Shown here piece after piece: positions 5,084-64,000 of a DNA stretch of 64,000 bases; position 1 is the stretch's first letter; every line of letters starts with the position of its first letter. Origin of the DNA: Thermodesulfobacteriota bacterium (GTDB lineage Bacteria > Desulfobacterota > BSN033 > UBA1163); NCBI GenBank assembly GCA_030017685.1, contig JASEHH010000007.1, forward strand, positions 1,824 through 65,823, given 5' to 3'. Under the pieces are notes generated by a model that searched no databases, had not been told where the DNA came from, and worked only from the letters and a program-made list of their open reading frames with translations. The position numbers and the translations under genes are program-made.

Positions 5084-5149
5084 AGTCGCTTGCAATAAGA
5101 AAAAAGGTTCTTCCGGCTTTTGTGTGGGTGCTTTCCCCCTCTTAAGTGT

Positions 5150-5198
5150 AACCCCCCTCTATTCCCCCCTTAAATTAAGGGGGGAATAGAGGGGGGTT
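5150..5198. repeat. perfect GC-rich palindrome (20-bp arms AACCCCCCTCTATTCCCCCC / GGGGGGAATAGAGGGGGGTT, 9-nt spacer)
   Basis: Read directly. It lies 12 bp upstream of the DUF559 gene. Confidence 0.8.
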
Positions 5199-5209
5199 AA
5201 TGGGGAGTT

Positions 5210-16324: not shown

Positions 16325-16996
16325 ATGCTCAAAATCTGCATCCCCATTATCGAGACCACTGTGGAGAAGGCTCGTCGCTCCATTGGAGAGGCTCACCAAT
16401 GGGCTGACCTCATTGAGCTTCGGGTCGATTATTTGAAAAAACCTGAACTCAAGCCACTCATGGACCATGGAGGAAAGTCTTTCATCGTTACGAACCGACG
16501 AAAGGAGGAGGGGGGAAGATACGAAGGGGACGAGAGGAGGAGATTCAGGATCTTGAGGGAGGCCGTGGAATTAGGCGCTCAATATGTGGATATCGAAGTG
16601 AAAAGCAGCCCCTTTTTTCTCCAGGACATGATTTCAAATAAAAAGAGGACACGAATGATTCTCTCCTTCCACAATTTTCAGGGAACCCCCTCCCCAGGAG
16701 AGTTGAGAAGGCTTTACGATCGTATGGTTCGATGGAGACCGGATGTCGTAAAGGTGGCAACCCTTGCCACGTCATGGGAGGATAATTTCAAGGTCCTGTC
16801 GCTTATCCCCTATGCGAGAAAAGAGAAGCAGAAGATCGTAGCCTTTTGTATGGGGGAGAAGGGAAGGATGAGCCGCATTTTTGCTCCCATGATGGGAGCC
16901 GGCTGGACCTATGCCTCTTTGAACAGGAATCGGATTTCAGCCCCCGGCCAATTGACCGTAACAGAATTGAGGGAAATCTGGGAGAGGTTGAGATGA
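16325..16996 (+). CDS. aroD: 3-dehydroquinate dehydratase, type I
   Basis: Ligand-binding motifs ELRVDYL and DIEVK, and about 220 aa in length. Confidence 0.85.
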   Translation: MLKICIPIIETTVEKARRSIGEAHQWADLIELRVDYLKKPELKPLMDHGGKSFIVTNRRKEEGGRYEGDERRRFRILREAVELGAQYVDIEVKSSPFFLQDMISNKKRTRMILSFHNFQGTPSPGELRRLYDRMVRWRPDVVKVATLATSWEDNFKVLSLIPYARKEKQKIVAFCMGEKGRMSRIFAPMMGAGWTYASLNRNRISAPGQLTVTELREIWERLR

Positions 16997-17862
16997 TCGA
17001 TGCTCAAACCGAGCTTTACGGAATCATCGGAAATCCGGTCCGGCACAGTCTGAGTCCGATCCTCCATAATGGGGTTTTTCGAAGGATGGAAATCAACGCC
17101 GTCTATCTGGCCTTGGAAGTCAAACATCTTAAAGAAGCCCTGAGTGGGATCAAAGCGTTGGGCCTACGGGGGGTGAGCGTGACGATCCCGTTTAAGACCG
17201 AGGTTTTCTCCCTGCTCGATGAAGTGGATGAGGTATCGGGAAAAATCAAATCGGTAAATACGATTGTCAATAAAGAGGGAAATTTGATCGGCTACAACAC
17301 CGATTGGCAGGGGGCAATGGAAGCCCTGGAGGAAAAGGTGAATTTAAAGGAAAAGAAGGTCCTTCTCCTCGGAGCCGGAGGTTCAGCTCGTGCCATAGGC
17401 TTTGGCCTGAAAGAGAAAATGTCCCAGATAATCGTATACAACCGATCACAGAATAGGGCTGAGGCATTGGCGAAGGAACTGGGATGCAACCATTGCCCGC
17501 TTTCATCGGTTGAGGAGATGGAGTGGGATATTATCGTCAATGCCACCTCTGTCGGTATGTATCCCCATGATGCGGAGAGCCCTATCCCGAAAGAGGTCTT
17601 GAAGAAAGGGATGGTTGTGATGGACATTGTCTATCAACCGCTACGGACGAGGCTCCTTCAGGAAGCTGAAGAACAGGGGTGTGTGACGATCGATGGGCTC
17701 GAAATGCTTGCCCGCCAGGGAGCGGCCCAGCTTGAAATCTGGATAGGTAGAAGACCTGATCTCAAGGAGATCAGGGAAGATCTGTGGCGAGCACTGGGGA
17801 GAGTTCCCCTCACCCCATCCCTCTCCCCAGCGGGGAGAGGGGAAGTCGCCGACGCGTCATAG
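16993..17862 (+). CDS. aroE: shikimate dehydrogenase
   Basis: MIDAQTELYGIIGNPVRHSLSPILHN and GAGGSARA Rossmann motif. The ATG at 16993 overlaps the aroD stop. Confidence 0.85.
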   Translation: MIDAQTELYGIIGNPVRHSLSPILHNGVFRRMEINAVYLALEVKHLKEALSGIKALGLRGVSVTIPFKTEVFSLLDEVDEVSGKIKSVNTIVNKEGNLIGYNTDWQGAMEALEEKVNLKEKKVLLLGAGGSARAIGFGLKEKMSQIIVYNRSQNRAEALAKELGCNHCPLSSVEEMEWDIIVNATSVGMYPHDAESPIPKEVLKKGMVVMDIVYQPLRTRLLQEAEEQGCVTIDGLEMLARQGAAQLEIWIGRRPDLKEIREDLWRALGRVPLTPSLSPAGRGEVADAS

Positions 17863-26081: not shown

Positions 26082-27560
26082 GTGGCGACTCCATCTTTAG
26101 AAGATTTTAAGAGACTGGCTGCTCAGGGCAACCTCATTCCCATCTTTAAGGAGGTTCACTTTGACTGGGAGACACCCCTCTCAGCATTCCGGAAGATCGA
26201 CGATGGAAAGTTTTCTTTCCTCCTCGAAAGCGCAGAAGGAGGGGAGAAATGGGGCCGATACAGTTTTCTTGGCTCAGGACCCTCTCTTCTCTTCCGAACA
26301 AAAGGAGAGGAGTTCGAAATCCTTAAGAATGGAGAGGTTCTTCGAGAGGGGAAGGATAAGGATCCGCTCCGTGCGCTGGAGGGTCTCCTGAAGCATTACC
26401 GTCCTGTTCTTCATGATTCCCTTCCACGTTTTTTCGGAGGAGCAGTTGGGTATGTCAATTATGATGTGGTCAGGTCTTTTGAGAAACTTCCGGAACAGCT
26501 CCCTCAGGACATAGGTCTTTATGACTCCTATTTCATGGTCACCGATACCCTGCTCGTCTTCGACAATGTGAAGCAGAAGGTCAAGGTGATTTCCAATACA
26601 TTCTTAGATGGCCAAAAACCCTTGGAAGAGGTCTACCGAGAAGCTCAGGAGAAGATTAAAAACATCATTGTCAAGATCCAAAGCCCAGCGCCCACTTCTC
26701 CCGTGCAAAAATTTTTCTCTCTCTCTTCTCTTCACTCAAACTTCAGCCGGGAAGATTTTATGAAAGGGGTGGAAAGGGCTAAGGAATATATTAAAGCGGG
26801 TGATGTTATTCAGGTGGTCCTCTCACAACGGTTCTCTACAGAGATCCATTGTCAGCCCTTTGATATCTATCGTGCCCTGAGGTCAATCAACCCTTCCCCT
26901 TATCTTTTTTATTTGAAGATGGATGATATTGTCCTTCTGGGGGCTTCACCCGAGGTGATGGTCCGTCTGGAAGACAGGCAGATTGAGCTCCGGCCACTCG
27001 CTGGAACTCGCAGAAGAGGAAGGACTGAGGAGGAAGATAGATCGATGGAAAGGGACCTACTGGCGGATGAGAAGGAAAGGGCGGAGCACATCATGCTGGT
27101 TGACCTTGGCCGAAATGACGTGGGCCGAGTAGCCGAGATCGGCTCGGTTGAAGTTACGGAATTGATGGGTGTGGAACGCTACTCCCACGTCATGCATATC
27201 GTCTCTCATATCCGTGGATCTCTGGCACAAGATAAAAACGCTTTCGACGTCTTCAGGGCAGCTTTTCCTGCCGGGACGGTATCCGGTTCCCCTAAGATTC
27301 GGGCCATGGAGATCATCGAGGAGCTGGAACCTGTCCGGCGCGGGCCTTACGCCGGAGCGGTGGGTTACTTCAGTTTTTCCGGAAACATGGACACCTGTAT
27401 CACGATTCGTTCCATTCTCATCAAAGACGGCAAGGCTTACGTCCAGGCAGGCGCAGGGATTGTCGCTGACTCGGATCCGGAGAAAGAATACGACGAGACC
27501 CTGAATAAGGCGCAGGCCGTCTTCAAGGCCATTCAACTTGCCGAGGAGGGATTGAGATGA
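26082..27560 (+). CDS. trpE: anthranilate synthase component I
   Basis: 492 aa with chorismate-binding domain motifs (LESAEGGEKWGRYSF, GAVGYFSFSGNMDTCITIR). Confidence 0.9.
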   Translation: MATPSLEDFKRLAAQGNLIPIFKEVHFDWETPLSAFRKIDDGKFSFLLESAEGGEKWGRYSFLGSGPSLLFRTKGEEFEILKNGEVLREGKDKDPLRALEGLLKHYRPVLHDSLPRFFGGAVGYVNYDVVRSFEKLPEQLPQDIGLYDSYFMVTDTLLVFDNVKQKVKVISNTFLDGQKPLEEVYREAQEKIKNIIVKIQSPAPTSPVQKFFSLSSLHSNFSREDFMKGVERAKEYIKAGDVIQVVLSQRFSTEIHCQPFDIYRALRSINPSPYLFYLKMDDIVLLGASPEVMVRLEDRQIELRPLAGTRRRGRTEEEDRSMERDLLADEKERAEHIMLVDLGRNDVGRVAEIGSVEVTELMGVERYSHVMHIVSHIRGSLAQDKNAFDVFRAAFPAGTVSGSPKIRAMEIIEELEPVRRGPYAGAVGYFSFSGNMDTCITIRSILIKDGKAYVQAGAGIVADSDPEKEYDETLNKAQAVFKAIQLAEEGLR

Positions 27561-28120
27561 TTCTGGTTATCGATAATTATGACTCCTTTACATATAACCT
27601 GGTTCAATACCTCGGTGAACTGGGATCAACATGCGTAGTCTATCGGAACGATGAGATCGATCTTCAGACCATCGAAGAGAAGAATCCGAACCATCTGGTC
27701 ATCTCCCCGGGCCCTTGCACCCCAAGAGAAGCGGGCATCTCCGTACAGGCAATCCTCCGGATGGCCGGGAAGATTCCCATTCTCGGAGTCTGCCTGGGAC
27801 ATCAGTGTTTGGGGGCTGCTTTCGGAGGAGAGATCGTTCAGGCCAAACGCCTGATGCATGGGAAAGGTTCTCTAATCTATCATGATGGAAAGACGATCTA
27901 TAAAGACCTTCCTAACCCTTTTCAGGCCATCCGGTATCACTCGCTTCTCATTGAGCGAAAGAGCCTGCCAGATTGCCTGGAGATTTCTGCGGAGACTCAA
28001 GAAGGGGAGATTATGGGCGTGAGGCACAAACGATTTTCCATCGAAGGGGTCCAATTCCACCCCGAATCAATCATGACGGAAGGAGGAAAAATCCTTCTTA
28101 AGAATTTCTTAGAAATATAA
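27557..28120 (+). CDS. trpG: anthranilate synthase component II (glutamine amidotransferase)
   Basis: MILVIDNYDSFTYNLVQYL, GVCLGHQ and HPES triad. Confidence 0.9.
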   Translation: MILVIDNYDSFTYNLVQYLGELGSTCVVYRNDEIDLQTIEEKNPNHLVISPGPCTPREAGISVQAILRMAGKIPILGVCLGHQCLGAAFGGEIVQAKRLMHGKGSLIYHDGKTIYKDLPNPFQAIRYHSLLIERKSLPDCLEISAETQEGEIMGVRHKRFSIEGVQFHPESIMTEGGKILLKNFLEI

Positions 28121-28393
28121 TCCCCCCATCCCCCCCTTTCGGAGAGGGTGTCGTAATGGAGTTAATGGGCAACTCTTGGCAGAGCAGGTGGTCGGGTTCC
28201 TCACCTTTAGAATGCGGGTCTTTTAAGTTAGAGGGAAGAGGACTTTTAGATAATTCAATGTTTTCATAAGTTTGGAGCGACAGAGCTTAACAACGAAAGG
28301 TTTCCGCTCTAAAGGTTCGTCACCCAACCACCCGCTCCGCCTCTTATATAGGTGGCTTTTGGTGGATTATGACACAGTCTCCAAAGGGGGGGA
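28121..28393. repeat. MITE-like element, family B, copy 1 (inverted ends CCCCCCCTTTCGGAGAGGGTGTCGTAAT / ATTATGACACAGTCTCCAAAGGGGGGG)
   Basis: Fills the entire trpG-trpD intergenic spacer. Its terminal inverted repeats match those of the element at 30219-30454. Confidence 0.5.
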
Positions 28394-28409
28394 TTAGAAT
28401 TAGAGGAGG

Positions 28410-29435
28410 ATGGCCATGTTTAAAGAGCTCATTAAACGATTGGTGGAAGGGAAGGACTTAAGGGAAGATGAGGCTTATGAGGCCATGTCATCCATCATGG
28501 ACGGGAAAGCCCTGCCCACCCAGATCGCTTCGTTTCTCACTGCCCTGAGGATGAAGGGGGAGACGGTCCCGGAGATTACCGGATTCGCACGGGCGATGAG
28601 AGCCCGAGCTCTCCCGATCCGATCAGCGAACGGGGAATATGTTGTGGACACTTGTGGTACCGGTGGGGATGGAAACAACACCTTTAACATTTCCACTGCT
28701 GTGGCTTTCGTTGCCGCTGGCAGTGGGTTAACCGTGGCCAAACATGGGAACCGTTCGGTGTCGAGCCAGTGCGGAAGCGCTGATGTTTTGGAGGCTTTAG
28801 GGGTTAACATCAATCTCGTCCCTGAGAGGGTGGAGCGTTGTTTGCTGGAGGTCGGCATGGCTTTTCTCTTTGCCCCTCTTTTTCATCCCGCCATGATGTA
28901 CGCCATCGGCCCACGAAGGGAGATGGGATTCCGCACGGTCTTCAACCTCCTCGGCCCCCTGACCAATCCAGCCGGAGCCAACGTTCAGGTTATAGGGGTT
29001 TACCGTAAGGATCTCGTTGGGCCAATCGCGGAGGTATTGAGAAATCTCGGATGCAAAGGAGCCCTGGTCGTCCATGGAGAGGATCATTGCGATGAGATCA
29101 GCATTACGGGGAAAACATTCATTGTCCAGCTTCAGAGGGGGAGGATTGAAAGTTATGAGGTTGAGCCCGAAGATATCGGCCTGAAGAGGAGGACCTTAGA
29201 GCAGATCCGGGGGGGAGGAGCGCAGGAGAATAAAAATATTCTCCTGGAGATTTTGGAGGGAGTCCATGGCCCCAGGCGGGAGGTTGTCCTTTTAAATGCA
29301 TCGGCTGTCTTTATGGCCGCAGAAAGGGTTTCAAACTTAAGGGACGGAATGGAAATGGCTGAAGAGTCCATTGACTCGGGCCGGGCAATGAGAAAACTTA
29401 AAGAGCTCATCCAATTTACGAATCGTGAGGGGTGA
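28410..29435 (+). CDS. trpD: anthranilate phosphoribosyltransferase
   Basis: GTGGDG and HGNRSVSS motifs, and about 340 aa. Confidence 0.9.
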   Translation: MAMFKELIKRLVEGKDLREDEAYEAMSSIMDGKALPTQIASFLTALRMKGETVPEITGFARAMRARALPIRSANGEYVVDTCGTGGDGNNTFNISTAVAFVAAGSGLTVAKHGNRSVSSQCGSADVLEALGVNINLVPERVERCLLEVGMAFLFAPLFHPAMMYAIGPRREMGFRTVFNLLGPLTNPAGANVQVIGVYRKDLVGPIAEVLRNLGCKGALVVHGEDHCDEISITGKTFIVQLQRGRIESYEVEPEDIGLKRRTLEQIRGGGAQENKNILLEILEGVHGPRREVVLLNASAVFMAAERVSNLRDGMEMAEESIDSGRAMRKLKELIQFTNREG

Positions 29436-30217
29436 TGAAGATGTTTCTAAGAAAAATCGTCGAGAAAAAAAAGGAAGAGGTCGAAGTGAGAAAAAAGATC
29501 TTCTCCATTAGGGAGAGGGAGGAAGGGATTTCAAACCTTTCCCTTCCCCGGGATTTGATGGAGGCGATCTCTCAACATGCCCCCATGGCACTCATTGCTG
29601 AAATTAAGTTTGCCTCCCCCTCTGCCGGAGTGATCAAGACGGATGGAGATCCTCGCCAAATCGCAAGCGAATATGAGTCGGCAGGAGCCTCAGCCATTTC
29701 GGTTCTCACAGAACCCAATTTTTTCAAAGGGGATCTTTCCTATCTGGGCTTGGTGAAAGAGAAAACCTCCCTCCCCGTCCTTCAAAAGGATTTCATCATC
29801 GATCCTTTCCAGATTTTTGAAGGAAGGGCCGCGGGGGCGGATGCAGTCCTTCTCATCGCTGCCATTCTCGATCGAGAACAACTCAACGATTTTGTGGACC
29901 TGGCAACAAGCCTCCGGATGGTCCCTCTGGTTGAAATTCACGATGAGGACGATCTTGAAAAGATATCAACTCTCTCTCTTCCTCTGATAGGGATTAATAA
30001 CAGGAACTTGAAAACGTTTGAAGTTGACCTAAGGACGACCCTTCGGCTAAAGAAGGAGATTTCCTCGAGATCAAAAGTGATCAGTGAGAGCGGAATTAAG
30101 AGTTCCCATGAGGTGAGAGTACTTAGAGAAGCAGGAGTGGATGGCATTCTGGTGGGAGAGATTTTGATGAGAAGTTCCGATCCCACCTCAAAAATTAAGG
30201 AGCTTCTCAAGGGATGA
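29435..30217 (+). CDS. trpC: indole-3-glycerol phosphate synthase
   Basis: ALIAEIKFASPSAG and LLIAAIL motifs. Its start overlaps the trpD stop. Confidence 0.85.
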   Translation: MKMFLRKIVEKKKEEVEVRKKIFSIREREEGISNLSLPRDLMEAISQHAPMALIAEIKFASPSAGVIKTDGDPRQIASEYESAGASAISVLTEPNFFKGDLSYLGLVKEKTSLPVLQKDFIIDPFQIFEGRAAGADAVLLIAAILDREQLNDFVDLATSLRMVPLVEIHDEDDLEKISTLSLPLIGINNRNLKTFEVDLRTTLRLKKEISSRSKVISESGIKSSHEVRVLREAGVDGILVGEILMRSSDPTSKIKELLKG

Positions 30218-30218
30218 C

Positions 30219-30454
30219 CACCCCCACCCATCCCTCCCCCCTCGGGAGACTGTGTCGCAATTGGGGAAATGGTCAAAAATGTCATGCTTTGAACCAGGTG
30301 CTGAACTTGTTTCAGTATTGTTTCAGCATCTCATAGAATCAACTACTTACGAGACCCTGAAATAAATTCAGGGTGACAAAATAATTATTACGACACAGTC
30401 TCTCGGAAGGGGAGGGTGAGCCTGCCTGCCGCAGGCAGGGGTGGGGGAGGAGAA
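30219..30454. repeat. MITE-like element, family B, copy 2, inserted at the trpC/trpF junction and flanked by direct repeat GATGA(CC)
   Basis: Left end CCACCCCCACCCATCCCTCCCCCCTCGGGAGACTGTGTCGCAAT. The right end is its inverted complement. The left flanking repeat contains the trpC TGA stop and the right one contains the trpF ATG. Confidence 0.55.
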
Positions 30455-30455
30455 G

Positions 30456-31088
30456 ATGACCTGGATTAAGATCTGCGGGATCACTAATATTGAAGACGGC
30501 TTAGAGGCTGTTTCGCTGGGAGTTAATGCACTGGGCTTTATCTTCGCTCCCAGCCCGAGAAGGGTTGAGCCTTCTGTAGCGAAGGAGATCATTTCGGTTC
30601 TTCCTGAAACGCTTTTAAAAGTGGGAGTCTTTGTGAATGAAGATCCGGAAGAAGTCCTGCGAGTTGCTGAATATTGTGGCCTCAATGTCCTTCAATTTCA
30701 TGGACAGGAGTCACAGGAGTATTGTCAGAAATTTTTTATTCCGGTCTTCAAGGCCATTCGCATAAAGAATTTGGAAAGCTTAAAAGATATTGAGAATTAT
30801 CACGATGTGACCATCCTTCTTGATACCTACAGTCCTGTACAAGCGGGTGGAACGGGGAATCCCTTTCCAGGGGAGATCGCACTAAAAGCGAAAGAGGAAA
30901 GAGACTTTATCCTCTCCGGAGGACTGAGCCCATCGAATGTGGGAGAAGCCATCAAGAAAGTGAGGCCCATGGGAGTGGATGTTTGCTCAGGTGTGGAGGT
31001 AACTCCGGGAAAGAAAGATCCATTAAAAATGAGGGATTTTATAAAGGAGGTCAGAAAAGCGGATGAGCAGGATCGATCAAACATTTAA
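30456..31088 (+). CDS. trpF: phosphoribosylanthranilate isomerase
   Basis: MTWIKICGITNIEDGLEAVSLGVNALGFIF is typical of PRAI. Confidence 0.85.
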   Translation: MTWIKICGITNIEDGLEAVSLGVNALGFIFAPSPRRVEPSVAKEIISVLPETLLKVGVFVNEDPEEVLRVAEYCGLNVLQFHGQESQEYCQKFFIPVFKAIRIKNLESLKDIENYHDVTILLDTYSPVQAGGTGNPFPGEIALKAKEERDFILSGGLSPSNVGEAIKKVRPMGVDVCSGVEVTPGKKDPLKMRDFIKEVRKADEQDRSNI

Positions 31089-31878
31089 AAAATTGAAAAA
31101 TAAATTTCGGGCGGCTTTGATCCCTTTTATCGTTGCCGGTGATCCGGATCTCGGTACAACAGAGGCGCTCATATTCAAAATGGTCGAAAACGGAGCGGAT
31201 ATGATCGAACTGGGCGTCCCTTTTCCAGAGCCGATTGCAGATGGCCCCACCATTCAGGCGACACACAAGCGAGCCCTCCAAAATGGAATCGGTCTAAAAG
31301 AGATACTCCGTATGACAGAGAGATTAAGAGACAGAATCCCACCTCTGATCCTGATGACCTACTTAAACCCTGTCTTAGAGTATGGCCTAAGAGATTTTGC
31401 AAAGGACTGCAAAGAGAATGGCGTCGATGGAGTCATTATCCCTGATCTAACTCCTGAAGAAGCAATGAAATGGGTCCGGGAAGCCCGAAGAACCGATTTA
31501 GACACTATTTTTCTTATTAACCCGGACAGTCCACTAGAACTTGTGAGATGGGCGAGCCGATCCAGTCGTGGATTTATTTACTATGCCACGGTGGCCGGTG
31601 CCACCGGTATAAGAGAGACTTTGCCAGAAGATCTCGAACGGTCTGTCAAGCGAATAAAAGAACAGAGTCAGAAGCCGGTGGCCGTCGGCTTCGGCATTTC
31701 CACTCCGGAACAGGCGAAGACGATCAGCCGTTTTGCTGATGGAGTTGTTGTGGGAAGCGCGATTGTGAAGATCATCGAGGAGAACCTCAAAAATCCGAAT
31801 ATGGTTAAAAGAGTAGGAGATTTCCTTGCCTCTTTTGCCAGGGCATTAAAAGGAAGTGGAAGGGAAATTAAATCATGA
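31063..31878 (+). CDS. trpA: tryptophan synthase alpha chain
   Basis: ALIPFIVAGDPDLGTT..ADMIELGVPFPEPIADGP motif. Confidence 0.9.
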   Translation: MSRIDQTFKKLKNKFRAALIPFIVAGDPDLGTTEALIFKMVENGADMIELGVPFPEPIADGPTIQATHKRALQNGIGLKEILRMTERLRDRIPPLILMTYLNPVLEYGLRDFAKDCKENGVDGVIIPDLTPEEAMKWVREARRTDLDTIFLINPDSPLELVRWASRSSRGFIYYATVAGATGIRETLPEDLERSVKRIKEQSQKPVAVGFGISTPEQAKTISRFADGVVVGSAIVKIIEENLKNPNMVKRVGDFLASFARALKGSGREIKS

Positions 31879-32528
31879 TCCTATCTTTAGCAACGATTGG
31901 AGGCATCTCATTTGTATTGGCCCTATCCGGGGCTCTTACACCTGGGCCCCTTTTGACGATCACTATTAGTGAGTCAATGAGAAGAGGATTTATCACGGGT
32001 CCCTTACTCATTTTAGGCCATGGGATTTTGGAATTGACCTTGATCGTAGCCATTGTGAATGGGTTAGGGACTTTTTTAAAGAAAGGTCCTGTCATGGGCA
32101 CTGTGGCCATCATCGGTGGGCTGGTCCTTCTTTGGATGGGTTGGAAAATGGTTAAAGAGACTAAAGGAGTTTACCTTTCCTTTAAAGAACGGCCAGTTGA
32201 AAGATCGAAAACCTTACATCCGGTTTGGAGTGGCATTCTTGTCAGTCTCTCTAACCCTTACTGGTCCCTTTGGTGGGCCACTGTGGGGCTGAGCTATATG
32301 ATGACCGCCATGGAATATGGATTAATGGGTTTGATTGTCTTTTTTGTGGGTCACATATCGGCTGATTTCCTCTGGTTCAGTTTGGTCTCCTATGGAGTTA
32401 GCACCGGACGGAAAGTATTCAGTGAGAAATTATATCAGAGGATAGTGGAGGGCTGCGGACTTTTTCTACTCCTATTTGGAGTCTGGTTTCTTGTGGTGGG
32501 ATTGAGATATTTTTTTCGCTTAGGATAG
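31875..32528 (+). CDS. LysE/RhtB family amino-acid exporter
   Basis: A 217-aa polytopic membrane protein with the LysE-type N-terminus (TPGP). Confidence 0.7.
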   Translation: MILSLATIGGISFVLALSGALTPGPLLTITISESMRRGFITGPLLILGHGILELTLIVAIVNGLGTFLKKGPVMGTVAIIGGLVLLWMGWKMVKETKGVYLSFKERPVERSKTLHPVWSGILVSLSNPYWSLWWATVGLSYMMTAMEYGLMGLIVFFVGHISADFLWFSLVSYGVSTGRKVFSEKLYQRIVEGCGLFLLLFGVWFLVVGLRYFFRLG

Positions 32529-34667: not shown

Positions 34668-35183
34668 CTTGGGAGTACAAGAATGCAATCGACTATAAAA
34701 GGTATTTAGGGGGACTAAATGCTCTTAAGATTAGCGGCACAAAACTTGCTTCTCTCTCCCTCCTCTCTCTTCTCTTGTTGCCTGCCTAAAACGCACGATC
34801 TCTCTCACCTTAATTGGAATTAAGGGGGTGAGCGAGGAGTTGGAACTATCTGTTTTCATTATATCTAAAAAATTGCTTCATACCTTAAACCTTAATATAA
34901 CAGAAAAAAATAAGACAGTTTTTGTGGAGGAATTCATGGATCGCTTTTTCACCGGGCATTTTTGAACAGATGGGGCAAGATCAGTATTGCTTTGCTTATA
35001 ATCTGAATTGTGATTGTGGCTGGTTTAAGGATTGTTATTTCAGTGAGAAACTATCTATAAGGAAAGAATTCCAAAACAGGACATTCAAGTAAGGCGGCTG
35101 CCTGCCTGAGTTGATCAAAAGATTTTTGGGATGAGACACTTAATCTGTGTAATCAGATAATCTTTTCCCATGGAGAAGACAAA

Positions 35184-36215
35184 ATGAGCGGCGAAGTTAA
35201 AACAAAAAAGTTATTCCAATATACATATCTTCTTTTGATAGGGGGAGTCATAGCGCTACTGGTTGGTTATTTTTGGCTCAGTCAGAAACAACAAAGACCA
35301 GGTGAGCCGCTTGAAAAAGTAACCCTTGCTGAACCAACCCAACCAAGTGCGGGACCTGTATATATCGCTTACATAAAAGGCTACTTCAAAGATGAAGGGC
35401 TTGATGTAACGCTTCAACCTCACACATCAGGAAAGGCCGCCCTCAATGCAGTATTGGAGGGAAAAGCAGATTTAGCAGTTGTTGCAGAAACCCCGATCAT
35501 GTTTGCTGTGATGAGGGGAGAGAAAATATACGCGATAGCTACACTATTTACCTCGGAGAAAAATATGGCGATTATTGCGAGAAAGGATAGGAAAATTTCT
35601 CTACCCGCCGACCTTAAAGGCAAAAGAATTGGAGTGAGTATCGGGACAAATGGAGAGTTCTTCATGGATGCGCTCTTAGTGATGCATGGAATACCTGTGA
35701 AAGAAGTTAAAGCAGTTAGTTTGACACCGGAGGAAATGTTTGACTCTTTAGTAAAAGGTGAAGTTGATGCCGTATCAACCTGGCACCCCCACCTGATCCG
35801 CTTACAAAAGAAATTTGGTGAAAGGGCAATAACATTCTACGGCGATGGGATATATACCTGGACATTTAACGTCGCTGTCATGCAAGAGTTTGCTCATAAA
35901 AATCCAGAAGTTATTCAAAGGGTTCTCCGGACTCTGATTAAGGCGGTAGAATTTATTAGAGAAAATCCAGATGAATCGCGCAAGATCATAGCAGACTATA
36001 TCAGGATGGATGAATCCCTGCTTCGTGAACTATGGGGCATCTATAACTTCGGCATAACGCTGGAACAATCTCTTTTAATAAACTTAGAGAATCAAACGCG
36101 ATGGGCAATAAAGAACAAGTTAACCGATAAAACAAAGGTTCCAAACTACCTTAATTTTATCTATCTTGACGGGTTGAAGGCGGTGAAACCTGAAGCGGTG
36201 ACAATTATCAGGTGA
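35184..36215 (+). CDS. membrane-anchored NMT1/THI5/SsuA-like periplasmic substrate-binding protein (copy 1)
   Basis: N-terminal transmembrane helix followed by an ABC-type substrate-binding fold. It is 100% identical at the protein level to the ORF at 62762..63793 on the minus strand. Confidence 0.7.
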   Translation: MSGEVKTKKLFQYTYLLLIGGVIALLVGYFWLSQKQQRPGEPLEKVTLAEPTQPSAGPVYIAYIKGYFKDEGLDVTLQPHTSGKAALNAVLEGKADLAVVAETPIMFAVMRGEKIYAIATLFTSEKNMAIIARKDRKISLPADLKGKRIGVSIGTNGEFFMDALLVMHGIPVKEVKAVSLTPEEMFDSLVKGEVDAVSTWHPHLIRLQKKFGERAITFYGDGIYTWTFNVAVMQEFAHKNPEVIQRVLRTLIKAVEFIRENPDESRKIIADYIRMDESLLRELWGIYNFGITLEQSLLINLENQTRWAIKNKLTDKTKVPNYLNFIYLDGLKAVKPEAVTIIR

Positions 36216-36221
36216 TGAATT

Positions 36222-38618
36222 ATGAAGATTAGGACCAGACTACAAATTATCGCAATCTTTTCTTTAGCAATAGCCCTTGTAATCGGCTTAGTTCTCTTTC
36301 TGACAGCTCAGAGGGTGAATAAAGAAATTAGTGGGCTAAAAATAGCAGATGAGATAGCAAAAGGGGTATTTGAGCTGAATATCATAACTTATGAATATTT
36401 ATTACACCATGAAGAGCGGATGCAGACACAGTGGCAGTTAAGGCATGACTCTCTAACGAAGTTGCTAACAGGGGAAGAATTCAAAAGTCCCGAAAGGCGA
36501 CTTATTTTAGACAGGATGCATCAGAATCTTGAGAGCCTTAAAGCTCTTTTTTCCCAACTGGTCGAAAATTACAAAAGGCGTGGGAGAAAAGAATCTGCTC
36601 TGTCACGGGAATTAGAAGAGAGATTGGCGGGCCAGTTATTGGTGAAGTCTCAAGCTATGGTTTCTGATGCCTCGCAGTTGGCCGAGGCAAGTCGGGCAGA
36701 GGTAGCAATTGCTCAACAAAGGTCCAGTCTGCTTGTTATGGTGTTTGTTGCAATCATGGCAGCAATTATTGCAGCGGTTTCATTTATGTTTGGCAGAAGT
36801 GTTGTAAAGCCGATCAGGAAGCTCCACGAGGGAACCGAAATCATCGGCGCTGGCAATCTGGATTACAGGGTGGGCACAACCGCAAAGGATGAGATCGGCC
36901 AGCTTTCCAGGGCATTTGATGAGATGATCGGAAAGCGCAAGCGTGCAGAGGAAGAAGTTCGACTCCTCCAAACCATCACATTTGCGATCAGCGAAACCGG
37001 AGATGTTCATTCCGCATTGAAGATTGTGCTCCAGAAGGTGTGTGAAGCTACAGGGTGGATCATGGGGGAGGCATGGGTTCCCAATTCTGATGGGACAAAC
37101 CTCGAATGCAGTCCAGCGTGGTATAGCAGGGTGGAAGGTCTGGAGAAATTTAGAAAGGAATCAGAGAAGTTTACATTCCCTCTCGGGATCGGACTTCCTG
37201 GCAGGGCCTGGTCTTCTAAGAAACCCGTATGGGTGGGAAATGTTACTCTGGATTCGAATTTTCCGAGAGCGGAGATTGCGAAAGGAGTTGGTCTCAAAAC
37301 AGCGATGGCCATTCCTGTTCTCATCGGCGACGAGATTGTTGCAGTGATGGATTTTTTTGTTTTCGAAGCCCGGAAAGAGGATGAACGACTCCTTGAAATC
37401 ATTTCATCGGTTGCCAGTCAATTGGGGTCCCTCATTCAGAGAAAGCGAGCGGAACAAGAGGTAAGAGTCCTGGAAGAACAACTTCGGCAGTCTCAGAAGA
37501 TGGAGGCCATTGGTCGTTTGGCGGGCGGCATTGCCCATGACTTCAATAATCTCCTGACCATTATAAAGGGTTATAGCCAGCTCTCCTTCGGTGAACTCAA
37601 AGAGGGCGATCCCCTGAGAGAAAACATCGAAGAGATCAGAAAAGCGGCGGATCGGGCCGCAGACCTGACCCGGCAACTGCTTGCCTTCAGTCGCCGCCAG
37701 GTGATGGAGGTGCAAGTTCTTGATCTGAACACCGTCTTAAAGAACCTGGATAAGATGCTCCGTCGGATGATCGGTGAAGACATCGAACTGACGACTTTAT
37801 TATTTGAGGATTTGGGAAGAGTCAAAGCCGATCCCGGACAGATTGAGCAGGTGATCATGAACCTTATAGTCAATGCAAGGGATGCGATGCCCCGGGGAGG
37901 AAAACTCACCATTGAGACGGCCAATGTGGAATTGGATAAGGAGTATGCCCGTACTCATGTCGCAGTGACTCCGGGTCCACATGTGATGCTTGCGGTAAGT
38001 GATACAGGGGTGGGAATGACTCCAGAAATCAAGGCAAAGATCTTTGAACCATTCTTTACGACCAAAGAGAAGGGAAGGGGGACAGGGTTGGGTCTTTCGA
38101 CCGTCTATGGGATTGTGAAACAGAGTGGGGGAAATATCTGGGTTTACAGTGAGCCTGGAAGAGGAACAACATTTAAGATTTATCTGCCGAGAGTGGATGA
38201 GCTTGCTGAGGAATTAAGAGTGAAGGTTGAGGGACCAGAACTTCCCAGAGGTAGTGAGACCATTCTCATCGTTGAGGATGATGAAAAGGTCCGGAAACTG
38301 GCTCTAAAGATATTGGAGAAGCAAGGATATGAGGTATTGGAGGCGGGAGGCGGAAATGAGGCTCTTGAGATTTGTAGGGGTTTGGAAAAGCCTATTCATG
38401 TTGTCCTCGCCGATGTGGTAATGCCCGGCATGGATGGTCGCCAGTTTGCGGAGAAACTGAGGGAAGTTTGTCAGGGGTTTAAGGTCCTTTATATGTCGGG
38501 CTATACGGATAATACCATTGCCCACCACGGGATTCTTGATGAGGGGTTGGATTTTATTCAGAAGCCTTTGTCCGTGGATGGACTGGTGAGAAAAGTCAGA
38601 GAGGTGTTGGATAAATAA
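36222..38618 (+). CDS. hybrid sensor histidine kinase (transmembrane - HAMP - GAF - HisKA - HATPase_c - receiver), copy 1
   Basis: 798 aa. The first roughly 240 aa and last roughly 400 aa are near-identical to the 60494..62755 protein. The central GAF-like segment ([15 protein letters not shown]...GIGLPGRAW...[17 protein letters not shown]) is unique to this copy. Confidence 0.85.
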
Positions 38619-38737
38619 TTCTTGAGGGTTTCAACCTAAGCTTTTTTATCATCAGATCAACCTCGATCAACGAGCCCCTATTTGAATTATGGTTTTTCAC
38701 GGTTAGGTTTAGATATTTTTAGCCACGGACATCCGAA

Positions 38738-39765: not shown

Positions 39766-39892
39766 CCCCGTTAGAAATAATGCCCCGCTGCTCCCTCCGG
39801 GCCAGAGGCCCTCTGGGCCGGCGGCTGTAGTGGGGTTACATTTCAGATTAATTCCGGTGGGGTTTAATGTCCCGCTGGAATTTCTAACGGGG
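39766..39892. repeat. MITE-like element, family A (ends CCCCGTTAGAAAT / ATTTCTAACGGGG, internal palindrome CCGGGCCAGAGGCCCTCTGGGCCGG)
   Basis: 127 bp. Both ends match the 75-bp element at 838-912. Related modules occur at 41703-41810. Confidence 0.5.
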
Positions 39893-40341
39893 TTTACTCT
39901 TCTTTTCGTATACCTCCTCCCACCTACCGCTCTTCTAAGGCCTCAGGAGCCTGTCAATCGTTGCCGAACCTATATCAAACAACTTCTTTGCAAGAGCATC
40001 CGATATCCTCAGCTCACCCATACCTCTTAAACCCTCTCTAACTCCGCCTCAATGATTGGCCTCAGTCTCTGCTCGCAGGAATGGCCAAAGACTTTCCACA
40101 GATTGAATGCATATCCACCCTCCACCTGTCCATGTAAACCAACTTCCATCGAAAGGATTTGGATTACATTTTAGATGATTTAATGCGGTTTGTTGACAAA
40201 TTATTTGAATTCCATTATTATTGGTCAAAATAATTTGGGTTAAAAATGGTTTAAGTTTTTTTTACTGTAGAGTGAAAGCTACAAACTATGCAGAACTACC
40301 CGATTTTTAAAGATTATCATAACTGTATCTAAAAGAGAAAC

Positions 40342-40569
40342 GTGTACCGCAACTTTGAAGAAATCTTGACAAAGGCAAAAGAACGAGGCCCTTGTAGGGT
40401 TTCCATCCTCTTCCCTGATGACCCGGATATTATGCGGGTGGCAGTAGACGGAATGAGGGAGGGACTGATTGAGCCTGTTTTGGTGGGCCATTATAAGCGG
40501 ATCAAGGCAATAGCCCAGGAGGCAAATTTACCCCTAAAAAATAGGTGCTTCCTGTTTTTGAATGGGTGA
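40342..40569 (+). pseudogene. duplicated 5' fragment (about 65 codons plus upstream region) of the phosphate butyryltransferase gene at 49630
   Basis: 40300-40545 is about 93% identical at nucleotide level to 49588-49830, including about 45 nt upstream of the start. The reading frame ends after 75 codons (...NRCFLFLNG). Confidence 0.6.
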
Positions 40570-40795: not shown

Positions 40796-41656
40796 ATGGA
40801 GATGAAAAGAGTGTGTGTCGTGGGTATGGGAACCATGGGGAGTCAAATCGGTATTGTCTGCGCCAGGGCTGGATTTCAGACCTTCATGGTAGATATCTTA
40901 GAGGAGCAGGTAGGAAAAGGACTACAAAGTATAGAGTCCTTTTTAAAAACCCAAGAGAAAAAGGGGAAAGTGGATAGGGAGGCAATTGATAGGATCTCAT
41001 CTTTTATTAAGACCGGCATAGATATGGGAGAGGCCCTCTCTGATGCTGACCTTGTAATTGAGGCAGTATACGAGGACATAAAAGTGAAAAAGGAGGTTTT
41101 TAAAAAAATGGATGAGGTGAGCCCGAGCCGAACAATTTTTGCCAGTAATACCTCGACCCTTTGGATTGCCGAACTGGGTGCGGTGACAGATCGTCCAGAA
41201 AAGTGCATCGGTACTCACTTTTTGATCCCTGCAGCACTCACGCCCCTTGTAGAAGTTGTCCGGAGCATTGAAACCTCAGACGAAACCCACGAGACAGTGT
41301 TAGAGTTTCTTCGAAAGTGTGGAAAGGAGACTGTAACAGTTGCAGACTCCCCTGGTTTTGTCATCAATAGACTCTACCTGCCAATGGTGAACGAGGCATT
41401 TTTTGCGCTTGAAACAGGTCTTGCCAGTGCCGAAGAGATTGACAGGAGCTGCACGAGAGGTCTCGCGTTTCCGCTAGGTCCCTTGGCGGCTGCAGATGCC
41501 TTTGGCTTAGATATACTGCTTGCCTCCATGGAGACTTTCCATAGGGAACTGGGGGAGAAATATCGGCCTGCTCCCCTGCTTGTAAAACTGGTCAAGGCCG
41601 GTCGTCTGGGAAGGAAGACAGGACGAGGCGTTTATAACTACAGTAAACCCCATTAG
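40796..41656 (+). CDS. 3-hydroxybutyryl-CoA / 3-hydroxyacyl-CoA dehydrogenase (NAD-binding)
   Basis: VCVVGMGTMGSQIG Rossmann motif, plus the conserved FASNTS and HF.P motifs. Confidence 0.85.
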   Translation: MEMKRVCVVGMGTMGSQIGIVCARAGFQTFMVDILEEQVGKGLQSIESFLKTQEKKGKVDREAIDRISSFIKTGIDMGEALSDADLVIEAVYEDIKVKKEVFKKMDEVSPSRTIFASNTSTLWIAELGAVTDRPEKCIGTHFLIPAALTPLVEVVRSIETSDETHETVLEFLRKCGKETVTVADSPGFVINRLYLPMVNEAFFALETGLASAEEIDRSCTRGLAFPLGPLAAADAFGLDILLASMETFHRELGEKYRPAPLLVKLVKAGRLGRKTGRGVYNYSKPH

Positions 41657-41702: not shown

Positions 41703-41810
41703 AAAGTCTCTAACGGGGCAAGCGGGGTATTAAACCCCTTGTTCGGTCTAAAAGGAATTATACCTTTATCCCCGCTGCAAGTAATGGGGCTTTCTAACGG
41801 GGTAAATAGG
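41703..41810. repeat. composite family-A-related repeat (TCTAACGGGG-CAAGCGGGG ... CCCCGCTGCAAG-...-TTTCTAACGGGG)
   Basis: The terminal modules are shared with the elements at 838 and 39766. It has internal inverted symmetry. Confidence 0.4.
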
Positions 41811-49344: not shown

Positions 49345-49629
49345 ATAAAAGGATAAGGAATGACCGTTTTTGGCTACGTAGTGGAATTAAGTTAAGCAGA
49401 TTTTGTGTGGGGTTTTTTTCATCCTGATTTAATCTAATCCTAATTAATGCCAAAAACTAAAAATTGAGGGAAAGGGGGTTATTGTCCCCCTGGAGATTTA
49501 TTCAACTAACATTTGGACAGTAGTGGTATTCCATTATTATTGAATAAAATCATTTTAGAGTAAAACTTGCCAAGTTACCAGAACTATTTAATTTTTAAAG
49601 ATTATCATAACAGGATCTAAAAGAGAAAC

Positions 49630-50511
49630 ATGTACCGCAACTTTGAAGAAATCTTGACAAAGGCAAAAGAACGAGGCCCTTGTAGGGTTTCCATCCTCTT
49701 CCCTGATGACCCGGATATCATGCGGGTGGCAGTAGATGGAATGAGGGAGAAACTGATTGAACCGGTTTTGGTGGGCCATTATAATCGGATCAAGGCAATA
49801 GCCCAGGAGGCAAATTTGCCTCTAAGCAAAATAGAGATTCGGGAAAAGAAAGATCCTCAGGAAGCGGCCAATTTATGTTTGGATATGGCGAAGAAAGGGG
49901 AAGTTACCTTCGTGGTCAAGGGCAATATTTTGACGACATATCTTTATAAGGCATTGATCAGGATTACCAAGAAGTTCTCGCTTGATCAGATACCTTGCGC
50001 ACTCTGTTTCCATCACATCGCGGGTATTGAGAAGATCTTTGTCATTACTGACGGTGGAGTAAACATCCACCCCAATCTCGAAACGAAAAAGAAGATTCTC
50101 GCCAACGCCATAAGCGTATTACAGAGGCTGGGTTGTAAACGACCTCGAATAATGATCCTTGCCGCCCCTCGCTTCCTTGATGAAGCCTCTTCTTATTCTC
50201 GGGATGCTGACATTCTTCGAAGACTGAGCCTGGGGGGAGACCTGGGCCAGTGTGAGATAGATATTGCTAAAAATCTCCACGAGGCCTTCCCTGACAGGTC
50301 CATACGAACGGAGACATTCCCTGACGTTTTTCTGGTTCCCAATATCGAAACTGGAAACATCCTGGTCAAGAGTATTGATCATCTGGGCATAGGCATACGC
50401 CAATGTGTGACGGTCGGAGCAGGTATATTTGTCCTTACCCCCTCACGATCAGATGGATATGAGGCCCGTATGATGAATTTATCACTGGGAATCGTCCTTG
50501 CCACATCATGA
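49630..50511 (+). CDS. ptb: phosphate butyryltransferase / phosphotransacylase (PTA_PTB family)
   Basis: 293 aa in the PTA_PTB fold, followed by a second ptb-like gene and a butyrate kinase. Confidence 0.75.
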   Translation: MYRNFEEILTKAKERGPCRVSILFPDDPDIMRVAVDGMREKLIEPVLVGHYNRIKAIAQEANLPLSKIEIREKKDPQEAANLCLDMAKKGEVTFVVKGNILTTYLYKALIRITKKFSLDQIPCALCFHHIAGIEKIFVITDGGVNIHPNLETKKKILANAISVLQRLGCKRPRIMILAAPRFLDEASSYSRDADILRRLSLGGDLGQCEIDIAKNLHEAFPDRSIRTETFPDVFLVPNIETGNILVKSIDHLGIGIRQCVTVGAGIFVLTPSRSDGYEARMMNLSLGIVLATS

Positions 50512-60471: not shown

Positions 60472-60493
60472 TATTTGTTGCCTTGAATTAGGA

Positions 60494-62755
60494 TTATTTA
60501 TCCATTACTTCCCTCACTTTTCTGACCAGTCCTTCCACAGATAGGGGCTTCTGGATAAAGTTCAACCCGCTTTCAAGAATACCGTGATGGGAAATGGCAT
60601 TATCCGTATAACCCGACATATAAAGAACCTTAAAACCATGACAGACTTCCTTAAGCTTCTCAACCAGTCGGCGACCATCCATTCCAGGCATCACCACATC
60701 GGTCAGGACAAGATGTATAGGCTTTTTCCCCTCCTTACCAATCTCAAGGGCCTCATCTCCGCTTCCCGCTCCCAGCACCTCATATCCATGCTTCTCCAAT
60801 ATCTTCATGGCGAGTTTCTGGACCTTCTCGTCGTCCTCAACGAGAAGGATGGTCTCACTGCCACGGGGAAGCTCCCTTTGAACCACCTTCTCACCCACCT
60901 CCTCCGGAGGCTCATCCACTCGCGGAAGGTAAATTTTAAAGGTCGTCCCTTTCCCCGGCTCACTATAGACCCAGATGTTTCCGTCACTCTGTTTCACGAT
61001 TCCATAGACAGTCGAAAGACCCAATCCCGTTCCTTTCCCCTTTTCTCTAGTCGTAAAGAAGGGCTCAAAGATCTTTTCCTTGACTTCCGGAGTCATCCCC
61101 ACTCCGGTATCGCTTACGGAGAGCATCACGTAAGGTCCCGGCTTCACTGCAATATGATTGCGGGCATAATTCTCATCCAGTTCCACATTGGATGTCTCAA
61201 TGGTGAGTTTCCCTCCCTTCTGCATCGCATCTCTCGCATTGACCGCAAGGTTCATCACCACCTGCTCGATCTGTCCGGGATCGGCCTTCACCATTCCTAA
61301 ATCATCTGCCAATAGAGTAACCAGCCCGATATCCTCACCAATGACCCGTTGTAACATCTTATCCAGATCTCGTAAAATGGTGTTGAGATCTAACACTCTC
61401 ATCTCCAACACCTGGCGCCGGCTGAAGGCCAAAAGTTGTCGGGTGAGAGCGGCTGCCCGGTCAGCCGCATTCTGAACCACCTCGATATTTTCTCGCAAAG
61501 GATCACCTGCTTTCATTTCCATGAGGGAGAGCTGACTGTTTCCCTTGATGATGGTGAGAAGATTGTTAAAATCATGGGCCACCCCACCGGCTAACTGGCC
61601 AATGGCCTCCATCTTCTGAGACTGACGAAACTGTTCTTGAAGGACACGCTTTTCTTCTTCCGCACGCTTGCGTTCGGTAATATCACGGACAATATGGACA
61701 ACGCCTTTCATCGCTCCGGAGTTATCGTGGATTGGATCTACCGTTACCTGAAGCCAGATCCCTCGCTCTCCATCGTAGAATTCAAAATCTTCACGGATAT
61801 TGGTTTGTCTCACCCGTTTAAAGGGACATCCCTCAATAAAATCAGATGTGCAATGAGCAATTCTGTAACAATGTTTGCCTAATACGTCTTCGGTTTTTAT
61901 TCCCAATAAACGTTCATAAACTCCGTTTGATTGTATGACTCTTCCTCCTGAGTCAAGAAGCCATATGCCATCTGATATTGCATTGAAAGTATTTTTCCAG
62001 TTTTCCAATGCTATTCCTAATGCCTCCTCGGCCTGCTTGCGCTTTCCGATCATCTCATCAAAAGCCCTCGAAAGCTGTCCAACCTCATCCTTTGCGGTTG
62101 TGCCCACCCTGTAATCCAGGTTGCCAGCGCCGATGATTTCGGTTCCCTCGTGAAGCTTCCTGATCGGCTTTACAACACTTCTGCCAAACATAAATGAAAC
62201 CGCTGCAATAATTGCTGCCATGATTGCAACAAACACCATAACAAGCAGACTGGACCTTTGTTGAGCAATTGCTACCTCTGCCCGACTTGCCTCGGCCAAC
62301 TGCGAGGCATCAGAAACCATAGCTTGAGACTTCACCAATAACTGGCCCGCCAATCTCTCTTCTAATTCCCGTGACAGAGCAGATTCTTTTCTCCCACGCC
62401 TTTTGTAATTTTCGACCAGTTGGGAAAAAAGATCTTTAAGGCTCTCAAGATTCTGATGCATCCTGTCTAAAATAAGTCGCCTTTCCAGACTTTTGAATTC
62501 TTCCCCTGTTAGCAACTTTGTTAGAGAGTCATGCCTTAATTGCCACTGTGTCTGCATCCGCTCTTCGCGGTGCAATAAATATTCATAAGTTATGATATTC
62601 AGCTCAAATACACCCTTGGCTATCTCATCTGCTATTTTGAGTCCAATAATTCCTTTATTCACCCTCTGAGATGTCAGAAAGAGAACTAAGCCGATTGCAA
62701 GGGCTATTGCTACAGAAAAGATTGTGATCATTTGTAGTCTGGTCTTAATCTTCAT
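60494..62755 (-). CDS. hybrid sensor histidine kinase (transmembrane - HAMP - PAS - HisKA - HATPase_c - receiver), copy 2
   Basis: 753 aa. It is the paralog of 36222..38618 but carries a PAS-like segment ([31 protein letters not shown]...) in place of the GAF segment. Confidence 0.85.
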
Positions 62756-62761
62756 AATTCA

Positions 62762-63793: not shown

Positions 63794-64000
63794 TTTGTCT
63801 TCTCCATGGGAAAAGATTATCTGATTACACAGATTAAGTGTCTCATCCCAAAAATCTTTTGATCATCTCAGGCAGCCGCTTTCCTTGAATGTCCTATTTT
63901 GGAATCCTTTCCTTATAGATTGTTTCTCACTTTTTTCGATATAATGAAAACAGATAGCTCCCAATCCTCGCTCCCCCCCTTAATTCCAGTTTAGATGAGT

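Follow-up and report, generated by a model that had tools for sequence, protein, structure and literature searches.

A probable nest of small repeats, a G/C-rich palindrome with an IS1182-family miniature element in its loop, splits the trpC/trpF overlap of a Thermodesulfobacteriota trp operon

RESULTS

An insertion with a 7-bp target duplication separates trpC from trpF

We analyzed a 64,000-nt stretch of DNA (the window) from a metagenome-assembled genome (MAG) of a Thermodesulfobacteriota bacterium (contig JASEHH010000007.1), in which a tryptophan (trp) operon carries an insert between trpC (indole-3-glycerol-phosphate synthase) and trpF (phosphoribosylanthranilate isomerase). The insert, labelled E1, comprises the 235 nt (30220–30454) that lie between two copies of GATGACC, i.e., an insertion of 242 bp if one copy is counted with it. 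The trpC stop codon TGA (30215–30217) is inside the left copy, and the trpF start codon ATG (30456–30458) is inside the right copy. The N terminus of the encoded TrpF, MTWIKICG, agrees with the TrpF of relatives, and the whole protein matches MDI6761962.1 of a Thermodesulfobacteriota MAG with 100% identity. An initial annotation, made from the sequence of the window, had described a miniature inverted-repeat transposable element (MITE) of about 236 bp, bounded by GATGA(CC), that split an ATGA overlap of the two genes; its repeat, its length and its placement of the stop and start codons agree with these coordinates.

Five relatives (L001, L002, L005, L006 and L007; loci from other genomes are designated by L and a number) have an empty site and align to the window with a clean 242-nt gap, the position of which is exact, between GATGAC(C/T) and TGGAT. 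Their TrpF proteins (L001, L002/L004, L005, L006 and L007) are 79–88% identical to that of the window, and all five sites read ...GATGAC(C/T)TGGATCAAGATCTGCGG, which is a 4-nt ATGA overlap, uninterrupted in the context ...GATGACCTGGAT..., as the initial annotation had predicted for the ancestral junction. In a survey of trpC/trpF junctions, the gap was −4 nt at 39 of the loci for which the trpC stop and the trpF start were both placeable, some of them with a TrpF identity of only 40–50%. The overlap is present even in such distant loci, which argues that it is ancestral, a junction of the translationally coupled type as judged from sequence, and that the insertion is real. The insertion split the overlapping stop and start and left both genes undamaged.

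Comparison with relatives separates the insert into layers

Three further loci, found by a TrpF metagenome scan and the junction survey (L130, L133 and L140), carry related inserts at the same junction. Specifically, L130 holds the outer layer alone: its gap is 60 nt (one GATGACC copy counted) and reads GATGA-CCACCCCCACCCATCCCTCCCCCCTCGGAGGGGGAGGGTGAGGGTGGGGGGGAGGAGAAG-ATGACC, with the same junctions as the window, no GAGAC...GTCTC unit and one TCGG at the center of the hairpin. In the window, TCGG flanks both sides of a 157-nt GAGAC...GTCTC unit, and the arms around it form a palindrome, a C-rich arm that may also be read as beginning at 30218 and a G-rich arm with a tail. This outer layer carries the 7-bp GATGACC duplication and the GGAGG in front of trpF (Table 1). 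Consequently, the part of E1 that bears the duplication is the G/C-rich palindrome, found by itself in L130, and not one MITE bounded by GATGA(CC) as first proposed. L140 agrees with the window in its outer arms and core termini but differs in its interior and is flanked by CGG (not TCGG); on this sequence comparison, L140 and the window represent independent insertions into the same palindrome loop. L133 has an interior of the window type that lacks both an expansion of 25 nt and the small palindrome in the right arm.

A third layer comprises the small palindrome and the ~25-nt expansion of the interior. The palindrome reads CCTGCCTGCCGCAGGCAGG, with 9-bp arms at 30421–30429 and 30431–30439; the initial annotation recognized it correctly as a palindrome, gave it with one wrong central base and treated it as part of the element, whereas its absence from L130, L133 and L140 marks it as a separate insertion.

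TABLE 1 Features of the trpC/trpF insert and of the surrounding trp operon (window coordinates)
Feature	Position	Strand	Evidence
trpC (indole-3-glycerol-phosphate synthase)	29432–30217	+	NCBIfam NF001377, 308 bits (cut-off 260)
Left copy of the 7-bp target duplication GATGACC	30213–30219	+	sequence; single-copy site in five relatives
Left (C-rich) arm of the outer palindrome, ACCCCCACCCATCCCTCCCCCC	30220–30241	.	inverted repeats; identical in L130, L133 and L140
Left copy of TCGG, former palindrome loop	30242–30245	+	single TCGG at the L130 hairpin center
Inner nonautonomous IS1182-family element (MITE), 157 nt, GAGAC...GTCTC	30246–30402	.	core matches; subfamily alignment; termini of partner insertion sequences
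Right copy of TCGG	30403–30406	+	sequence; comparison with L130 and L140
Right (G-rich) arm and tail of the outer palindrome, AAGGGGAGGGTGAG (18-nt insert) GGGTGGGGGAGGAGAA	30407–30454	.	inverted repeats; comparison with relatives; block fit
18-nt palindromic insertion in the right arm (third layer), CCTGCCTGCCGCAGGCAG	30421–30438	.	absent from L130, L133 and L140
GGAGG, candidate Shine-Dalgarno sequence of trpF, 5 nt upstream of ATG, in the tail of the outer palindrome	30446–30450	+	sequence
Right copy of GATGACC	30455–30461	+	sequence; alignment of relatives
trpF (phosphoribosylanthranilate isomerase)	30456–31088	+	NCBIfam NF002298, 227.6 bits (cut-off 215)
E2, second nested element at trpG/trpD, 277-nt insert	28117–28393	.	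core matches; relatives
trpE	26082–27560		NCBIfam
trpG	27557–28120		NCBIfam
trpD	28410/28416–29435		NCBIfam
trpA	31063–31878		NCBIfam

The inner layer belongs to a family of IS1182-derived MITEs

The inner element has 16-nt terminal inverted repeats (GAGACTGTGTCGCAAT and ATTACGACACAGTCTC, 15/16 bases complementary) and an interior of two hairpin modules with an expansion of ~25 nt at about 30289–30317. Its 157 nt have no coding capacity, and the open reading frames (ORFs) that overlap it are spurious antisense ones from the adjoining genes. Its terminal core, GAGACTGTGTCRYAAT, matches the window four times versus 0.22 expected by chance; two of the matches bound the trpC/trpF element and two fall in the 290-nt gap between trpG and trpD, giving two copies of the inner element in the 64-kb window. 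Both empty sites and further copies of the terminal repeats exist.

A scan of a genome collection (one genome per species) with the pattern CCCCN{3,8}GAGACTGTGTCRYAAT returned at least 120 loci. Among the matches listed, to which all family counts in this paragraph refer, most hosts were Thermodesulfobacteriota/Syntrophales MAGs, with others in Nitrospirota, Binatia, Aminicenantes, Planctomycetota and additional phyla; at least 4–5 core-matching contigs occurred in each of several genomes, and many copies were situated at contig ends. Plus/minus pairs of the core less than 400 nt apart numbered 76, with a modal core-to-core length of 130–132 nt. In 48 of 74 paired copies, an identical trinucleotide stood immediately left of GAGAC and right of GTCTC (about 1 of the 74 expected by chance); 22 different trinucleotides were represented, and the flanks were inverted in only 2 copies. 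A 3-bp direct repeat directly outside GAGAC...GTCTC, together with the junction comparisons, argues that GAGAC...GTCTC is the mobile unit, and the sequences indicate that its target is the loop of a C-rich/G-rich palindrome, where 3 bp are usually duplicated.

Full-length partners of the element have cores ~1.75 kb apart and encode a transposase: L094 (5109–6854, 480-aa protein) and L046 (6189–7943, 496-aa protein). The partner transposase matches NCBIfam NF033551 (IS1182 family) with 376 bits (cut-off 270) and has the Pfam domains DUF772, DDE_Tnp_1_6 and DDE_Tnp_1. Transposase fragments adjoin the core in L050, L074 and L093, and the MAG that contains L094 also contains two core-bearing contigs, L033 and L079. 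The interior of the window copy represents a conserved subfamily; its highest alignment identity to another member, 95.6% over 68 nt, is with a copy from a Nitrospirae MAG. By its size, terminal inverted repeats, target duplication and transposase-encoding partner, the unit at 30246–30402 classifies as a MITE of the IS1182 family; the extent of the MITE in the initial annotation was too large, as only the inner 157 nt have a transposase-encoding partner, and they carry a TCGG duplication of their own.

Two other candidate statistics were set aside. Direct repeats of 6–12 nt outside the arms of 70 other copies gave 6- to 8-mers at about the level of chance by a rough estimate and were not used, and ORFs starting just outside the G-rich ends (42 of 192 ends) had no proper control.

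The outer layer fits the BoxC/PIT/triplex motif

We found that E1 without its inner layers fits the layout of C-block, loop, G-block, linker and G-block on both strands, with no more than two mismatches per 9-nt block relative to the E. coli motif sequences in Table 1 of PMC4666352 (e.g., CCCTCGCCCC-TTT-GGGGAGAGGG-TTA-GGGTGAGGGG; Holder et al. 2015). The same block test gave 0 matches in 20 shuffles of the window, and the hairpin-only inserts of L130, L144, L145 and L148 passed it too. The outer layer thus has the sequence characteristics of the BoxC/PIT/G/C-rich triplex motif, which Holder et al. describe as confined to intergenic positions, unconnected with mobile elements and tied to local sequence turnover (PMC4666352). 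Our copy shares with the published motif the block order with a 2- to 4-nt linker between G-blocks, near-identical block sequences, a position between genes, the occurrence of palindromic pairs and the link with local sequence turnover (PMC4666352). It differs in being a symmetric double form and in the 7-bp duplication at its arrival, where Holder et al. saw no link to mobile elements. Duplications are seen at both sites for which empty relatives are available, with 7 bp at trpC/trpF and 8 bp at trpG/trpD.

A near-perfect BoxC/PIT/triplex motif also lies at the aroE/aroA junction (window 17807–17841, minus strand), reading CCCTCTCCC-cgctg-GGGAGAGGG-atg-GGGTGAGGG, within a 3′ extension of the aroE ORF (16846–17862); the two genes have an ATGA overlap in the relative L006. 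In addition, a perfect palindrome with 25-bp arms, TAACCCCCCTCTATTCCCCCCTTAA/TTAAGGGGGGAATAGAGGGGGGTTA, occupies an intergenic position at 5149–5199, just upstream of a gene start with GGGGAG and ATG, and its layout (C6-linker-C6/G6-linker-G6) resembles that of the triplex motif.

A second nested element resides at trpG/trpD

The second element, E2, has outer arms of C-runs and G-runs around an inner core element (28142–28381), and it is flanked by TTAGAAAT (28109–28116) and TTAGAATT (28394–28401), an 8-bp repeat with 7/8 positions matching. E2 costs trpG about 6 codons and provides a new end, ATA TAA, while the native GGAGG of trpD stays in place; trpG and trpD overlap in the relatives L005 and L006. 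Its interior is ~70% identical to elements in L103, L114, L021 and L084. An insert at trpG/trpD in L134 has the same right junction as E2, and the L130 insert at that junction is of the hairpin-only form. E2, the arms of which are homopolymeric, does not pass the triplex-motif block test. Together with aroE/aroA and trpC/trpF, trpG/trpD makes three junctions of the aromatic/tryptophan cluster that were colonized by small repeats with no gene destroyed.

Other lineages have inserts of unrelated repeat families, 129–227 nt long, at the trpC/trpF junction: L138 (3310–3500), L157 (3276–3500), L159 (3278–3500), L153 (288–514) and L160 (958–1086). Several of these hold hairpin modules of the GTCATTCCGG...CCGGAATCC type with TCGTAAAAAGT / ACTTTTTACGA ends. 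The trpC/trpF junction has repeatedly received small repeats.

The insert is predicted to bury the trpF Shine-Dalgarno sequence in a hairpin

The G-rich end of the inserted DNA does lie immediately before trpF, as the initial annotation noted, and its GGAGG plausibly serves as the Shine-Dalgarno sequence of trpF; the stretch around it, GGAGGAGAAGATG, is shared with L130 and L140. The RNA from 30195 to 30480 has a predicted minimum free energy of −120.2 kcal/mol (z = −5.8). In this predicted fold, a hairpin sequesters GGAGG, with G30446-47 paired to C30221-22 and GAGAAG (30450–55) paired to CUUCUC (30203–08) in the last codons of trpC, and TGA and AUG are unpaired. The predicted fold of L130 has the same pairing as the window. 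A scan of 27900–30700 revealed no promoter- or terminator-like signals above those of shuffled sequences. Rfam 15 gave no match at gathering scores in the whole window, and a permissive search of 28000–30600 gave matches at the level of chance only (E of at least 0.1).

The operon and other repeats of the window

In the trp region (26082–32528), trpA comes directly after trpF, and tblastn found no trpB in the whole 64-kb window; in the relative L007, trpB is placed between trpF and trpA. Comparison of the window with L001, L130, L132 and L140 over 29432–31088 showed a mosaic of identity. The 5′ half of trpC is 93–100% identical among the window, L001, L130 and L140, and the 3′ half is 65–88% identical, while trpF has an internal block that is 97–100% identical to L001. 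This pattern suggests recombination among these populations. In the aromatic-biosynthesis operon of L005 (150–1383, 2347–3417 and 3743–4802), an IS110-family transposase gene separates the gene for shikimate kinase from that for chorismate synthase, and the gene calls split both the EPSP synthase gene and the chorismate synthase gene into two pieces.

The window contains three further repeats. A large inverted duplication (35102–36952 versus 62025–63875, 98%; 37443–38622 versus 60490–61669, 77%) bears genes for an SsuA-like substrate-binding protein and an ~800-aa hybrid histidine kinase, with very different divergence in its halves. A 270-nt direct repeat with 91% identity is found at 40268–40537 and 49556–49825, the former copy resembling an orphan piece of the 5′ region of the gene that spans 49630–50511. 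Lastly, the motif CTGGAATTTCTAACGGGGTAAACT occurs three times (886–909, 39875–39898 and 41785–41808), partly as inverted pairs with partners at 837–855 and 41504–41539, near acyl-CoA metabolism-like genes, and is possibly an operator.

DISCUSSION

We interpret E1 as a nest of layers, i.e., a G/C-rich palindrome with a transposon-derived element in its loop, and not as one mobile element (probability, about 0.75). Such a nest is essentially an ordinary case of selfish DNA, and both of its kinds, IS1182-family elements and BoxC/PIT/triplex motifs, are already known. The initial reading is retained in an improbable alternative, in which a single MITE with C/G-rich terminal inverted repeats of ~45 bp transposed whole into GATGACC with a 7-bp (or 5-bp) duplication. 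An exact 7-bp direct repeat does bracket the whole insert, the C-rich and G-rich arms extend the inverted repeat of the core outward, E2 also has its 8-bp flanking repeat, and the core is embedded in similar arms in most other genomes among the matches listed. However, a whole-element transposition is at odds with L130, where the arms occur without the core at the identical site, and with L140, where the same arms enclose another interior with another inner duplication. The variable 3-nt repeat between arm and core, direct and not inverted in 48/74 of the copies listed, is the signature of a separate insertion, and full-length insertion sequence (IS) copies end at GAGAC...GTCTC in flanks that are not C/G-rich. 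Moreover, direct repeats outside the arms are elsewhere no commoner than the rough chance estimate.

It is very unlikely that E1, instead of being selfish DNA, is a regulatory RNA that the host has selected in its trp operon (a processing site, an attenuator or a translational control hairpin). Although the very stable predicted hairpin occludes the ribosome-binding site of trpF beside the trpC stop codon, and related inserts reside at this junction in several lineages, the same sequences are found at unrelated loci in many phyla, including the Nitrospirae MAG copy noted above (95.6% over 68 nt), and the relatives closest by TrpF identity (L001, 85%; L002, 88%) lack the insert. The Rfam searches, at gathering and at permissive thresholds, gave no match; other lineages hold unrelated repeat families at this place; and PIT/triplex motifs had neither promoter nor terminator activity in the earlier work as cited in PMC4666352. 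Least likely of all is a chimera induced by repeats during assembly. The window does derive from a MAG, and many family copies elsewhere sit at contig ends, where repeats break assemblies, but both flanks run collinear with the operon of relatives, exact to the base, and the same junction sequences appear in independent assemblies of other samples (L130, L133 and L140).

A number of observations weigh against the nested interpretation or parts of it. There is no IS1182-family transposase within the 64-kb window, and the 3-bp repeat is missing from the flanks of E2 and of the two full-length IS copies. The scan pattern demanded CCCC beside one arm of the core, and the apparent link to C/G-rich flanks is biased by this demand. 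At triplex-motif or hairpin-only units elsewhere in the fetched loci, no flanking duplications were obvious. L130 may be a product of precise excision and not the state before insertion. The outer layer may have arrived once, with repeated precise excision, or several times; empty and filled sites are intermingled in the TrpF tree, which does not distinguish these two histories because trpC and trpF appear from their sequences to be recombination mosaics. As for the proposed effects on translation, the Shine-Dalgarno and coupling steps are drawn from sequence and a thermodynamic fold, and L133 does not share the CUUCUC/GAGAAG pairing.

With E1 read as a nest, its history may be proposed as follows. 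Comparison with relatives indicates that a BoxC/PIT/triplex palindrome entered the ancestral GATGACC overlap and duplicated 7 bp, so that the left copy kept the TGA of trpC and the right copy the ATG of trpF. Comparison and the family statistics indicate that the 157-bp IS1182-derived unit then landed in the 4-nt loop and duplicated TCGG, and the 18-nt palindrome and the internal expansion of ~25 nt would have been added later. In the operon mRNA, the insert would fold into a long hairpin that buries GGAGG; ribosomes ending trpC, whose stop codon abuts the stem, would melt the lower part of the stem and make GGAGG accessible for trpF. Translation of trpF would then depend on completion of trpC, a restored form of translational coupling. 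We infer that the insert is tolerated because the reading frames are intact and the G-rich tail sets GGAGG 5 nt before the trpF ATG.

The closest documented parallel is IS1272/TnSha1 of staphylococci, IS1182-family elements that target hairpins (PMC4923244, PMC5678879). In both systems, an IS1182-family DDE transposase is encoded, here by the partner elements (NF033551), and inverted-repeat (hairpin) targets are used without primary-sequence specificity, one hairpin being used repeatedly (PMC4923244, PMC5678879). In contrast, the present element is nonautonomous, 130–280 bp long, and shares about 16–30 nt of terminus with the full-length IS; it enters the loop, usually with a 3-bp duplication, and keeps both target arms, whereas IS1272 reportedly makes no duplication and deletes or replaces part of the target (PMC4923244, PMC5678879). 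The hosts differ as well, being Thermodesulfobacteriota and other sediment and groundwater phyla.

Two other comparisons are instructive. IS1397 and ISKpn1 (IS3 family) land in the loops of the palindromic units of repetitive extragenic palindromic (REP) sequences and bacterial interspersed mosaic elements (BIMEs) of enterobacteria with a 3- to 4-bp duplication. The loop of an abundant intergenic palindrome as landing site and the 3- to 4-bp duplication are therefore common to both cases, while the transposase family is another, the target repeats are unrelated, and IS1397 and ISKpn1 are full-length ISs, not MITEs. Correia elements (Neisseria) and ERIC elements (enterobacteria) are MITEs co-transcribed within operons, where their RNA hairpins can alter the processing or translation of neighbors. 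Like E1, they are short inverted-repeat elements with long RNA hairpins between genes of one transcript; unlike it, they have unrelated sequences and different target duplications (TA for Correia).

To our knowledge, the origin and spread of BoxC/PIT/triplex motifs have gone unexplained since the 1990s. A broader proposal, which we regard as doubtful for now, is that these motifs themselves inserted in a transposition-like manner with 7- to 8-bp duplications, that their loops are preferred landing pads of IS1182-family elements across phyla, and that their G-rich arms supply ribosome-binding sites, which lets nests colonize coupled junctions. In the literature searched, we found no description of an IS1182-derived MITE or of insertion sequences targeting triplex motifs, nor one of systematic MITE residence in triplex-motif loops with a 3-bp duplication.

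The present analysis defines a widespread and apparently undescribed family of IS1182-derived MITEs, which is found in Thermodesulfobacteriota and further anaerobic phyla and whose members clearly tend to enter hairpin loops, and links it physically to BoxC/PIT/triplex motifs, which earlier work tied to no mobile element. It also shows that a target duplication is able to regenerate an overlapping stop and start, and the comparison of filled with empty sites at two positions offers a testable handle on how triplex motifs arrive. If the broader proposal is true, it would explain by a concrete mechanism the "genomic instability" described near triplex motifs, and the ribosome-binding sites of the G-rich arms would let nests occupy coupled junctions without killing the operon.

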